Shown piece by piece: positions 50,092 to 63,505 of a stretch of 64,000 nucleotides of DNA. Position numbers and translations under genes: made by a program. The notes below the pieces were generated by a model that saw only the letters and a program-made list of their open reading frames with translations, did not search any database and was not told where the DNA came from. The DNA is from Myxococcota bacterium (GTDB lineage: Bacteria > Myxococcota_A > UBA9042 > PHBI01 > JAWLBL01), in contig JAWLBL010000004.1 of assembly GCA_041687695.1 (NCBI GenBank), positions 32,001-96,000 on the forward strand, written 5' to 3'. Each line of letters starts with the position of its first letter. The stretch's first letter is position 1.

Positions 50092-53000
50092 GTGTCGCCC
50101 CACTCCAAATCGCTGACGCTGACGCCGGCCGCGGACCTGGCGCGCACCCTCGGCCTCGAGATCCACGAGGAGATCGGCCGCGGCGCCCAGAGCATCGTGT
50201 ATCGGGCGAGCCGCGGGGGACGCGCCTTCGCCGTCAAGGTCCAGCGCGAGTCCGTCTGGGAGGCCCCCGACCCCGAGGAGGCCGCCACGCGCTTTCGCCG
50301 CGAGGCCGGCATCCTCGCGCGCATCAAGCACCGCGCGCTCGCGCGCGTGATGGACGTCGGCGAGATCGAGGGGCGCCACTACCTCATCATGGAGTACGTC
50401 GAGGGCCAGACGCTCGACCGCGCCCTCGAGCGCGGCCCCCTCGATCCGGCCACGCTCACCTCGCTCGCTCGGAGCCTGGCCGACGGCCTCGCCGAGGTGC
50501 ACCGCCGCGGGCTCATCCTGCGCGACGTCAAGCCGCGCAACATCATCCTGGACGCGACCGGCGCGCCGCACCTCATCGACTTCGGCTTCGCCACCGAGAT
50601 CGGCGGCCCGCGCGAGGCCTCGCAGCGCGCCCTCGGCACCTTCGTCTACAGCGCCCCCGAGCAGACCGGCATGCTCAAGCGCCCCATCGACGGGCGCGCC
50701 GACCTCTACGCCCTCGGCGTCGTGCTCTTCGAGTGCGCGACCGGCTCGCCGCCGTTCTACTCCAGCGATCTGGCCGAGCTCATCCGCCTGCACGCCGTGG
50801 CGCCGGCCCCGGACGTGCGCGCGACCGCGACCGACGTGAGCCCGGCGATGGCCGCGATCATCGCGCGGCTGCTGGCCAAGGACCCTGACGACCGCTACCC
50901 CAGCGCCCTGCGCCTCGAGGCGGATCTGGACAACCTCGCCGCGCTGGACCAGGCCTTCGCCGAGGGGCGCCCGGTGCTGCTCGGCGCCGAGCCCGAGCCC
51001 CCGACGGCCGTGTTCGAGACCGCCCTGGTCGGCCGCGATCCCGAGCTGGGGGCGCTGCGGCGCAGCTGGCACCGGGTGCGTCGCGGTCGTGGCGAGGCGG
51101 TCCGGGTGGTCGGCGAGGCGGGGATCGGCAAGACGCGCCTGACGGCCGAGCTGCAGGACGAGCTGCTGCGTTCGGGGGCTCTGGTGCTCTCGGGGGCCTG
51201 CGCGGGGCTGGGGCGTCCGCTGTGGGCGTTGCGCGAGGCCATCGAAGGGCACCTCTCCCGCCGCGTCGACCCGCCCCAGGGCGTCTCGTCCGCCGAGGCG
51301 CGCCACAAGCTCGCCGAGGCGGCGAGCGGCCTCGAGCCCCTCGTCGGCAGGCTGTCGCCGCGCCTGGCCGAGCTGCTGCACACCGATCCGGCCTCGGCGC
51401 AGACGGACGCCGAGCAGCTGCACGAGGCGCTGGCCGAGTTCCTGGCGCGCTTCGCGACCCTGCACGGCGCCGCCGTCCTGCACCTCGACGACATGGACCG
51501 CGCCGACGAGGCCACGCTCGAGGTCGTCAAGCGCCTGCTGCCGCGCCTGCCCGAAGCGCCGATCCTGCTCGTGGGGCTGTGGACCGTCGACGAGGCCGAG
51601 GGCGGCCCGCCCGATCTCCAGGGCGGCTTGATGAGCCAGGAGGGGTCGCCGTGGGCCGAGATCCGCCTGGGCCCCCTGGCCGCCGAGCACGTCGCCACGA
51701 TGGCGGCGGATTTCCTGGGCACGCGCGAGATCGGCACGCGCCTGACCGAGCGCCTGGCGGCGTGGAGCGGCGGCAACCCCTTCGTCGTCGTCGAGATGAT
51801 GCGCGCCATGCTCGACGGCGGGGTGCTGCGCCCGACGTGGGGGCGCTGGATCATCGACGAGCCGCGCCTGGAAGCCCTCGAGCTGCCGACCAACGCCTTG
51901 CGCCTGGTCACGCGCCGCATGCACGACCTCGAGCCGCGCACGCGCCGGGTGCTGGCGACGGCGGCCCTCATCGGGCAGCGCTTCGACCTCGAGCTGCTGC
52001 GATCCGCCGCCGCGGAGGACAGCGAGGACGTGGACGTCGCGCTGACCGAGGCGATCCAGGCCGGCCTGGTCGAGCGCGGCGTCGTTGGGGCGTGGTCGTT
52101 TCGCCACGCGCGGATCCGCGAGGCGCTGCGCGACAGCCTGACCGACGACGAGCTGGCCGTCGCCCACCAGAGCATCGCCGACAGCCTCGACGCCGCCCCG
52201 CTGCAGGGACCTTCGATGCTCCTGGCGCTGGCCGACCACTACGCCGCCGGCGTCCGGCACGGCCACCTCGAGCGCGTCTTCGAGACCAGCTTCGCCGCCG
52301 GGCAGCTCGCCCTGCGTGAGCACGCCAACGAGCGGGCGCGGCGCCTGCTGGCCGAGGCCATGCGCGCCCAGGAGGAGGGCGGCCGGCCGCGGCCGGTCGA
52401 GCTCGACGCCCTGTACGCCGAGGCGTGCCTGCGCACCGGCCGCACCCACGACGCCGCCCACCACCTCAGGGCCGCGCTGGCGCACGCGTCCGGCGCGACG
52501 CTGCGCTGCGAGCTGCGGGCGCGGCTCGCCTGGGCCCACCTCGTCGACGGGGACGCCGTCGAGGCGCTGGAGGAGGCCCGCGCCGGGTTCGGCGAGCTGG
52601 GCGAGCGCTTCCCCGAGGGCCGCCTCGTGCAGCTGATCTGGTGCGCGCGCCACCTGGCCGGCGCGACCCTGCGCCGCTTGCCCGAGCCGGGCCGAGCGGC
52701 CGCAGCGGTCGAGGCGCCCCTGGACCGGGCGCACGGCCGCGTCATCGCGCAGCTGTGCGAGGTCGCGGCGACGGCCGCCGATCGCCAGCGCCGGCCGCTG
52801 CTGGTCACGGCCCTGCGCCTGCGTCAGGTCGAGGCGTCCGCGGCCCTGGGCGCCAGCCCCGAGCTGCTGGCGGCCACGTGTCAGACGGCCTCGCTGATGA
52901 TCACGTTCGGCCGCCTGACCTTGGCCGAGCGCCTGGTCACCTACGCAGGCCAGATCGCCGAGCGCCTGGGCGACCCCGCCAGCGCGGGGCGGGTGCTGAT

Positions 53001-62800: not shown

Positions 62801-63505
62801 GCCGGCCTGTCCGACGGGGACCTCGACGCGCTCTTCGAGCGGGTCAGCGCCGCGGCCCGCCCACACGTGCCGCACATGGTGCTCCTCGCGCCGTCGCTGC
62901 AACCGGAGATCGCCCAGTTGGCCCCGGCCGCGGGCTTCTCGGCGTGGCTGGGCGCCCCCTTCAGCCGGGTCAAGCTCATCGACCGCCTGCACGCCGTCGC
63001 CAAGAGCCGCCGGCCCGCCCCGCGCGCGACCCCGGCGCCGACCCCGCCGCCCAGCGCGATGACGGCGCCGACCGCGCCCGCCGCCCCGCGCCGCCCCGCG
63101 CCGGCCGAGCCGGCCGAGGGCCACGAGGCGCGCATCCTGCTGGTCGAGGACAACCCCGTGAACCAGAAGGTGGCCCTGAAGGTCCTCGAGCGCCTGGGCT
63201 ACGCGGCCGAGGTGGCCGCCAACGGCCGCGAGGCGCTCGAGCGGCTCGAGGCGAGCCGCTACGATCTCGTGCTGATGGACTGCCAGATGCCCGAGATGGA
63301 CGGCTTCGAGGCGACCATGGAGATCCGCCGCCGCGAGGAGAGCTCCGGCCGGCGCATCCCCATCGTGGCCATGACCGCCCACGCGATGCAGGGCGACCGC
63401 GAGCGCTGCCTGGCCGTCGGCATGGACGACTACCTCAGTAAGCCCGTCCGCAAGGAGGCGCTGGACGCGACCATCACCAAGTGGCTCGACCAGACGCGCA
63501 AGTGA
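56828..63505 (+). CDS. Paralogous giant hybrid sensor with degenerate STK, ATPase and HATPase motifs but intact HisKA His and REC Asp
   Basis: GTG 1 bp after the previous stop; collinear with the upstream gene. ARDLRPAA, no [54 protein letters not shown]. Confidence 0.9.

Follow-up and report, generated by a model that had tools for sequence, protein, structure and literature searches.

A tandem pair of giant hybrid kinases in a Myxococcota bacterium: one copy is probably kinase-dead and may be phosphorylated by its sister

To our knowledge, histidine kinases are taken to be homodimers, and their duplicates to evolve so that they avoid each other. ChpT and Spo0B are dimeric histidine phosphotransferases, the Anabaena genes for Pkn41 and Pkn42 are reportedly adjacent, and one of the Myxococcus xanthus hybrid kinases EspA and EspC, which are said to be unlinked and of different architecture, reportedly phosphorylates the receiver of the other. 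Kinases that join Ser/Thr and His kinase domains include HstK and the Anabaena gene pair, as far as reference titles and a mention go (PMC1262709, PMC3898017). BarA and GacS phosphorylate in trans, and GacS forms a heterodimer with RetS through DHp domains that are 56.9% identical (PMC8498467). DivL and an evolved ChrS variant are pseudo-histidine kinases that steer an active partner (PMC9491836), and gene duplication is known to let heterodimers take the place of homodimers (PMC11066126). Here we analyze two adjacent genes, copy 1 and copy 2, in a 64,000-nucleotide stretch of contig JAWLBL010000004.1 from a Myxococcota bacterium (the window, to which coordinates refer unless another locus is named). 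Each gene encodes a Ser/Thr kinase and a hybrid histidine kinase in one chain, and copy 2 is very probably a selected kinase-dead partner of copy 1, a conclusion that spans three of the models weighed below, namely a heterodimer, a brake and a relay.

Copy 1 (50092-56826, + strand, 2,244 amino acids) and copy 2 (56828-63505, + strand, 2,225 amino acids) are collinear, lie 1 bp apart and are 39-41% identical over their length, which bears out the sequence-only reading, an earlier interpretation of this DNA that had noted two collinear genes of about 2,200 amino acids with 1 bp between them. The frame of copy 1 is open back to 49918 and its start codon is not fixed; copy 2 is an open frame of 6.7 kb with a GTG start. 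At the junction (56815-56830, +), a GAGGAGG site resembling a ribosome-binding site (56815-56821) lies within the last codons of copy 1 and is followed by TGA, 1 bp and the GTG of copy 2, with a gap of 6 nt between GAGGAGG and GTG, from which we infer that the two genes are translationally coupled. Both proteins run from a Ser/Thr kinase through a STAND ATPase, helical repeats, GAF and two PAS domains to DHp, the catalytic ATP-binding domain (CA), a degenerate first receiver and a terminal receiver (REC2). Pkinase, AAA_16, GAF, PAS, HisKA, HATPase_c and REC are all matched by Pfam above cut-off in both copies, in agreement with the domain order first proposed except for its tetratricopeptide repeats (TPR): neither copy has a Pfam TPR match, and the label had been an inference for the helical region between ATPase and GAF, which is conserved with 59 homologs, some relatives having TPR matches. 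Pkinase, AAA_16, GAF, HisKA and HATPase_c follow each other in HstK-like order in a single chain in both copies, and BarA is the best NCBIfam match for both, below cut-off.

The rare loss in copy 2 is that of conserved CA residues with the His of the DHp kept. In its degenerate CA (62204-62566, +), T1808, R1811, L1812, S1848, L1863, H1865 and G1872 replace conserved residues, T1808 falling in the N-box (62249) and S1848 in the G1 box (62369); the first N-box Asn, the G1 Asp and the G2 glycines are kept. In GHKL chemistry, the lost N-box and G1 residues are needed for ATP binding or catalysis, and the CA of copy 2 is accordingly predicted to be inactive. The Mg-binding N-box Asn is present in 63/63, 119/120 and 112/113 relatives, the exception in the last set also being without the His, so that none of the 113 family members lacks this Asn while keeping the His. 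Likewise, the N-box Asn deviates in none of the 191 aligned histidine kinase domains (of 193) retrieved by a representative-sequence search. The CA of copy 1 (55567-55914, +) has canonical N, G1, F and G2 boxes.

The acceptor side of copy 2 is better preserved. Its slow-evolving DHp (61868-62065, +) has an intact SHEIRT motif and keeps H1691 (61898), the HExxT Thr1695 and the Asn at H+7; a His is thus retained without autokinase motifs, as in dimeric histidine phosphotransferases. This DHp is 62% identical to that of copy 1 and close to the ordinary hybrid-kinase consensus, with a median identity of 69% to its top 30 relatives. It aligns without gaps to RetS and to PDB 7z8n, labelled "Histidine kinase", which we take to be GacS, and RetS cores are among the top solved-structure matches. 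The fast-evolving DHp of copy 1 (55231-55428, +) keeps H1724 and T1728, and the Asn at H+7, a presumably receiver-facing position at which 120/120 and 161/163 relatives have Asn, has become Ala1731. REC2 of copy 2 (63134-63475, +) keeps D2151 (63278), T2183 and K2205 and is near consensus, with 45/46 and 28/30 conserved columns in two reference sets, and that of copy 1 (56443-56787, +) keeps D2166, T2200 and K2222 and evolves faster than its counterpart, the alpha4 face included. The alpha1 helices of the receivers are nearly the same in the two copies. The first receiver has lost its acidic pocket and Thr in copy 1 (55951-56316, +; D2009 and K2061 kept), and in copy 2 it is a pseudo-receiver without Asp and Lys (62624-63004, +; G1991, A2043). 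The claim that copy 2 kept its phospho-acceptors therefore stands for H1691, T1695, D2151 and K2205 and falls for the Asp and Lys of the first receiver.

The second degenerate site of copy 2 is its Ser/Thr kinase (56876-57607, +), which has lost the beta3 Lys (V46, 56963), the alphaC Glu (Q64), the catalytic-loop His, Lys and Asn (ARDLRPAA, 57233-57256) and the DFG motif (absent at ~57293), and has kept the catalytic Asp and the C-lobe. Every substitution of copy 2 listed in the sequence-only reading (VAIK Lys, ARDLRPAA, DFG, the Walker A Arg, N-box and G1) was found at its position; the Gly-loop, described there as absent, still has its second glycine. An AlphaFold model of the kinase-STAND part, driven by an alignment of active relatives, has a predicted local distance difference test (pLDDT) of 89 and a predicted template modelling score (pTM) of 0.90; Foldseek places PknB kinase domains at the top of its matches. 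Copy 2 is hence predicted to contain a Hanks-fold pseudokinase in which the beta3 Lys and DFG Asp are lost and the fold is kept. The Ser/Thr kinase of copy 1 (50158-50898, +) has the beta3 Lys, alphaC Glu, catalytic Asp, Asn and DFG of active Hanks kinases (K49, E71, D145, K147, N150 and D163 of DFG). Nevertheless, the HRD His, present in 59/59 and 83/83 homologs, is lost in both copies, replaced by Leu143 in copy 1 (50518) and by Ala in copy 2 (57233), so that the kinase of copy 1 may be atypical too. With the HRD His, the STAND sensor-1 and a regular first receiver all missing, a fully canonical copy 1 is not supported. The kinase Lys, Asp, Asn and Asp are all intact in 58/59 of the nearest homologs. 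In a wider set, at least one of them is substituted in 68/202 kinase-STAND proteins (30 of the 202 had an unaligned site) and in 53/113 of those with a histidine kinase, which makes a dead Ser/Thr kinase ordinary in this family.

We compared the two copies at columns conserved in 80% or more of their homologs, using 59 homologs picked with copy 1 for the N-terminal part, 63 for the histidine kinase and 55 for REC2. Copy 1 keeps 19/21 columns in the kinase N-lobe, 24/26 in the catalytic segment and 32/33 in the C-lobe, and copy 2 keeps 8/21, 15/26 and 30/33. The modules that follow differ less: 25/28 and 23/28 columns are kept in the STAND core by copy 1 and copy 2, respectively, 35/37 and 29/37 in the helical and winged-helix part after it, 40/43 and 37/43 in the helical repeats, and 29/37 and 25/37 in GAF. 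In the histidine kinase, the scores are 22/25 and 23/25 for DHp, 35/37 and 23/37 for CA, and 28/30 for REC2 in both copies. The losses of copy 2 are thus concentrated, with 24/47 columns lost in the kinase N-lobe and catalytic segment versus 3/33 in the C-lobe (p=9e-5), and 14/37 in CA versus 4/55 in DHp and REC2 (p=4e-4). Branch lengths agree: copy 2 exceeds copy 1 by a factor of 12 in the kinase N-lobe and catalytic segment and of 3.3 in the C-lobe, and the ratio is 1.0 in the STAND core (1.02x) and 1.3, 1.1 and 1.2 in the remaining N-terminal segments. The stretch of copy 2 with the helical region, GAF and two PAS domains (58961-61807, +) matches copy 1 in its helical and GAF rates (1.1-1.2x). 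Since the STAND, helical and GAF rates are near equal (1.0-1.3x), copy 2 is not in general decay. These concentrated losses, together with an intact frame and normal codon use, uphold the proposal of a selected pseudokinase rather than random decay.

Rates in the histidine kinase shift in opposite directions in the two copies. With 40 references picked with copy 1, the terminal branches of copy 1 and copy 2 are 0.55 and 0.14 for DHp, 0.28 and 0.88 for CA, and 0.54 and 0.18 for REC2; with 40 references picked with copy 2 they are 0.57 and 0.14, 0.36 and 0.87, and 0.61 and 0.16, respectively. The direction is upheld in 24-25 of 25 column bootstraps for each. In round figures, DHp and REC2 changed 3-4 times faster in copy 1, and CA about 3 times faster in copy 2. 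A 167-sequence tree has 56 sister pairs, of which 26 shallow ones were dropped and 30 scored, and among these 30 deep pairs the two copies show the largest opposite shift, with a reciprocity score of 1.58, the next being 0.79. In copy 1, the changes affect the Asn at H+7 (to Ala), the helix leading into DHp and the alpha4 face of REC2. Because its His, Thr, Asp and Lys remain, the acceptors of copy 1 appear to be relaxed, not dead. We also considered gene conversion from other kinases of the host as a cause of the short DHp and REC2 branches of copy 2 and rejected it, DNA identity being at most 76% and four-fold sites at background.

The interpretation that we favor, tentatively and at somewhat less than an even chance, is a heterodimer in which copy 1 phosphorylates the His of the kinase-dead copy 2 in trans. 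An old tandem duplication would have split the work, leaving copy 1 with the ATP-binding catalytic domain and copy 2 with the preferred phosphate acceptors. The two products would be made together and pair through their DHp helices, and the CA of copy 1 would load His1691 of copy 2 in trans, as in the BarA/GacS class, while the His of copy 1 itself would face the dead CA of copy 2. Phosphate would then pass on to Asp2151 of copy 2. The STAND, helical, GAF and PAS modules of copy 2 would gate the dimer as a second input set, and its pseudo-Ser/Thr kinase would act as a scaffold or allosteric partner. Such a trans-acting heterodimer predicts the observed rates, with copy 2 fast in CA and copy 1 fast in DHp and REC2. 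Among the roles suggested in the sequence-only reading, the relaxed DHp and REC2 of copy 1 favor a heterodimer subunit phosphorylated in trans over a pure scaffold, as far as rates of sequence change can tell. The stronger version, in which tandem duplication and complementary subfunctionalization gave an obligate heterodimeric hybrid histidine kinase with one subunit as the enzyme and the other as its substrate (His and Asp), is possible but rather doubtful.

Several observations weigh against the heterodimer. At strictly conserved columns, scored with references picked with copy 1, the copies tie in DHp (22 versus 23 of 25) and in REC2 (28 versus 28 of 30), and a tree of DHp only (80 columns) did not group them. 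Copy 2 also lost more conserved columns outside the catalytic segments, 34 versus 17 of 178 (p=0.015). The pair is known from one genome, without an ortholog, and hence without dN/dS or recurrence, and the trans mode of phosphorylation is carried over to these copies from their class. Copy 1 retains H1724, T1728, D2166, T2200 and K2222 and could act alone as a homodimer, and the joint change of its DHp, H+7 included, and REC2 also fits a new specificity that insulates it from copy 2. Finally, RetS, the best-studied partner with a dead CA and a kept His, inhibits its kinase and was labelled only on its receiver Asp (PMC5992135).

This last point leads to the most serious alternative, which we regard as possible though rather unlikely: copy 2 would be a RetS-like brake that drains phosphate from the His of copy 1 to Asp2151, removes phosphate from the copy 1 receiver by way of its HExxT motif and poisons homodimers of copy 1. 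RetS uses the same three mechanisms on GacS (PMC5992135), and the anatomy of copy 2 is that of RetS, with a degenerate CA, H-box and HExxT kept and two receivers, the last of them intact. The strong conservation of the DHp and REC2 of copy 2 fits a brake, as does the presence of RetS cores among the top structural matches. However, a brake alone does not explain why the DHp and REC2 of copy 1 are relaxed, and if copy 1 acts in trans, a partner made in coupled and probably near-equal amounts would shut most of it off, unless pairing were regulated. Moreover, copy 2 departs from RetS itself, as its input is kinase-STAND-GAF-PAS instead of a membrane sensor and its G2 glycines are kept, whereas RetS has lost its G boxes.

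A less likely alternative is that the DHp of copy 2 works as a dimeric histidine phosphotransferase, with phosphate travelling from His1724 to Asp2166 within copy 1, then to His1691 of copy 2 and on to its Asp2151 or to a distant regulator. Neither copy has an HPt domain, the four Pfam Hpt matches of the host genome all lie in long proteins (by reading, three CheA-like kinases and one hybrid kinase), and the alpha4 face of copy 1 REC2 is changed, all of which would suit such a relay. A precedent is RedE of Myxococcus, which does not autophosphorylate and takes phosphate from a receiver (PMC2755868). On the other hand, copy 2 is no stand-alone divergent DHp-CA protein but a multidomain one of 2,225 amino acids, its DHp is near the hybrid-kinase consensus (69% median identity), unlike the poorly conserved HisKA of RedE, and receivers of hybrid kinases may be mere sinks.

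It is quite improbable that copy 1 works alone with a new DHp-receiver specificity and that copy 2, with the ancestral surfaces kept, dephosphorylates other hybrid kinases of the host or accepts phosphate from them. The DHp of copy 2 is 63% identical to hybrid kinases on contigs C16, C7 and C5 versus 62% to copy 1, its REC2 is 62-64% identical to hybrids on C16 and C5 versus 58% to copy 1, and it is copy 1 in which H+7 changed. These identities, however, follow from copy 2 being near consensus, and the genes stayed in one coupled unit through saturating divergence, with receiver alpha1 helices that are nearly the same.

The trees and the codons speak to the age of the pair and to what remains of decay. 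The copies are sisters in the tree of the N-terminal 1,450 residues (support 0.998, 59 homologs), in the histidine-kinase-core tree (0.879), in two DHp+CA+REC2 trees (0.978 and 0.97) and, with 11-12 further homologs added, in the STAND (0.912) and helical plus GAF (0.986) trees; on this phylogenetic evidence the pair is one of sister paralogs from an old tandem duplication. Four-fold sites (n=384) are 52.9% identical between the copies against an expectation of 48.9%, which shows that synonymous change has reached saturation. Every domain of the two copies has a GC content at third codon positions (GC3) of 0.96-0.98, and codon adaptation lies at the 56th percentile of 2,578 called genes for copy 1 and at the 60th for copy 2. 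When copy 1 was evolved neutrally to 64% identity in a simulation of substitutions only, at least 8 stops arose in 100/100 runs (mean 15.6), and copy 2 has none. A recent pseudogene is ruled out by the open frame, which has no stops or frameshifts, the normal codon use and the non-uniform loss of constraint. That copy 2 is a decaying duplicate without a role, or an ordinary slower kinase with a weakly active CA, is very improbable: the single genome, the mild extra loss outside catalytic segments and the kept G2 glycines, G1 Asp and first N-box Asn would allow it, but the 2,225-codon open frame, the GC3 and codon adaptation values, a DHp and REC2 slower than those of copy 1 and the near-invariance of the Mg-binding N-box Asn in relatives all stand against it.

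The third nucleotide site, that of the STAND-type AAA_16 modules, does not follow this division. The sequence-only reading had counted three lost ATP sites in copy 2, and this holds for the Ser/Thr kinase and the CA only: the STAND module of copy 2 (57734-58960, +) has the Walker A motif GEAGSGRS, with changes confined to K to R (R338, 57839) and the residue two places later, and it keeps the Walker B DD and the sensor-1 TSR (R492, 58301), its rate not being raised (1.02x). The module of copy 1 (51025-52251, +) keeps the Walker A K347 and Walker B DD and has lost the sensor-1 TxR (L496 and T498, 51577-51585), whose Arg is present in 45/59 homologs. A complete site, with Walker A Lys, Walker B acids and sensor-1 Arg, is thus found in neither copy. 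An Arg in Walker A occurs in 1/59, 3/202 and 6/91 homologs (three overlapping sets), and 4/6 of the latter have an intact catalytic loop in the stretch inspected; other deviant Walker A motifs occur at 6/25 phylum loci. As the variant occurs in relatives, the rates are equal and copy 1 lost its sensor-1, we rejected the K-to-R change as a specific inactivation of copy 2; an origin of this module from actinobacterial GSGRS proteins was rejected as well. A PDB sequence search with the STAND module gave no match below E 0.1, and the Foldseek matches listed for the kinase-STAND model are all kinases. In kinase-STAND proteins of other members of the phylum (L143, L145, L146, L149, L154 and L155), Walker A is deviant and the Ser/Thr kinases look intact, which suggests that this subfamily can often do without a STAND site.

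Recurrence of an active/inactive pair in related genomes, which the sequence-only reading had suggested checking, was found in none of the genomes and loci searched. No ortholog of either copy was detected in 40 related genomes by a strict first look, the tallies of which are a floor, or confirmed among 120 candidates from a pattern search of GTDB contigs. Protein database searches gave no ortholog with the N-terminal part of copy 2 (best match 36%), with copy 2 against shorter proteins or with copy 1. The same was true of 80 metagenome loci, with best segments at 34-45%, and of a search of 1.84 billion representatives with residues 1518-2225 of copy 2, whose best 150 matches are at 32-51%. 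Two matches on one contig were seen in 0 of 106 genomes of the class (13 candidates per genome scored) and in 0 of 400 genomes of the phylum (3 candidates per genome scored), and no second copy was found at 25 phylum loci read directly, several of whose contigs end near the gene. Over the N-terminal 1,450 residues, the closest subfamily is one whose members mostly carry GGDEF or another output at their end. At one locus (L142:2371-11382), a kinase-STAND-histidine kinase gene is directly followed by a hybrid histidine kinase gene, both of which keep the His and the N-box Asn. A myxobacterial relative, P0011, has the helical region, GAF and HisKA, starts inside the STAND module and ends at the N-box without a CA; it could be frameshifted or truncated.

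The pair forms a two-gene unit flanked by a divergent gene upstream and a convergent gene downstream, and the 14 neighbors scanned include neither a response regulator nor an HPt gene. The divergent gene (48806-49768, - strand) encodes a 320-amino-acid RHS/YD-repeat protein with a lipoprotein-like N-terminus, and the convergent one (63665-64000, - strand, continuing beyond the window end) is SnoaL-like or ketosteroid-isomerase-related, with matches below cut-offs. Three head-to-tail 24-bp repeats (49984-50055), two identical and one with two changes, lie immediately 5' of copy 1, in the interval common to it and the divergent gene, and are possibly operator sites; the exact repeat unit has no other occurrence in the host genome. 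A scan that covered the downstream side only found no sigma-70 promoter or intrinsic terminator 3' of copy 2. A protein database search queried with copy 1 listed copy 2 and not copy 1 itself. An antisense frame of 2,448 amino acids overlaps copy 1, so that gene callers may have missed this gene. The host genome, of 8.0 Mb and 73% GC, is the sole member of its family. Its kinase census is incomplete, at least one kinase (on C5) having been missed by the gene caller, and it includes kinase-like proteins with degenerate H-box or N-box motifs (C15:53597-56095 and C7:204568-205815).

If the obligate heterodimer is real, output would depend on the two subunits together and on the STAND, GAF and PAS inputs of each, which amounts to a built-in AND gate, and the locus would catch a homodimeric kinase in the course of evolving into a heterodimer with an enzyme and a substrate subunit. 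The reciprocal-rate signature could also serve in genome screens for further heterodimeric kinases. These implications come from one genome, and pseudo-histidine kinases beside active ones are already an established theme. In the literature searched, whose coverage is incomplete, no paper came up that describes a tandem pair of whole-length kinases with catalytic and acceptor modules relaxed reciprocally.

Among described systems, HstK and Pkn41-Pkn42 share with the two copies a Ser/Thr kinase, an AAA_16 ATPase, GAF and a histidine kinase in one chain, as far as reference titles and a mention (PMC1262709, PMC3898017) show, but a dead CA with a kept His occurs in no member of the HstK-like family examined (0/113). 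In the RedC-RedD-RedE-RedF system of Myxococcus xanthus, RedE is kinase-like and does not autophosphorylate; its His is retained, and it takes up phosphate and has phosphatase activity (PMC2755868). RedE is however a stand-alone protein of 242 amino acids in which HisKA is poorly conserved and HATPase conserved, and copy 2 is the reverse, with sensors and receivers of its own. Plant NLR pairs such as RGA4/RGA5 and RRS1/RPS4 join linked partners with STAND modules, one of whose P-loops is dispensable (PMC9528088); they offer an analogy only, as neither STAND site is complete here, the STAND rates are equal and the division lies in the histidine-kinase core. The closest likeness is to RetS-GacS of Pseudomonas aeruginosa, in which a hybrid kinase with a degenerate CA, intact H-box and HExxT and two receivers faces an active partner of the BarA/GacS class with a very similar DHp (PMC5992135, PMC8498467). 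RetS and GacS are unlike each other in architecture and are membrane sensors, whereas the copies described here lie side by side, are paralogs over their whole length, carry Ser/Thr kinase and STAND modules and have no HPt; G2 is kept, and it is the DHp and receiver of the active copy that are relaxed. RetS-GacS, the best-studied heterodimer with a dead partner, is inhibitory, and the copies here show opposite rate shifts in catalytic and acceptor modules; this reciprocal asymmetry is the new element over known pseudokinase pairs.

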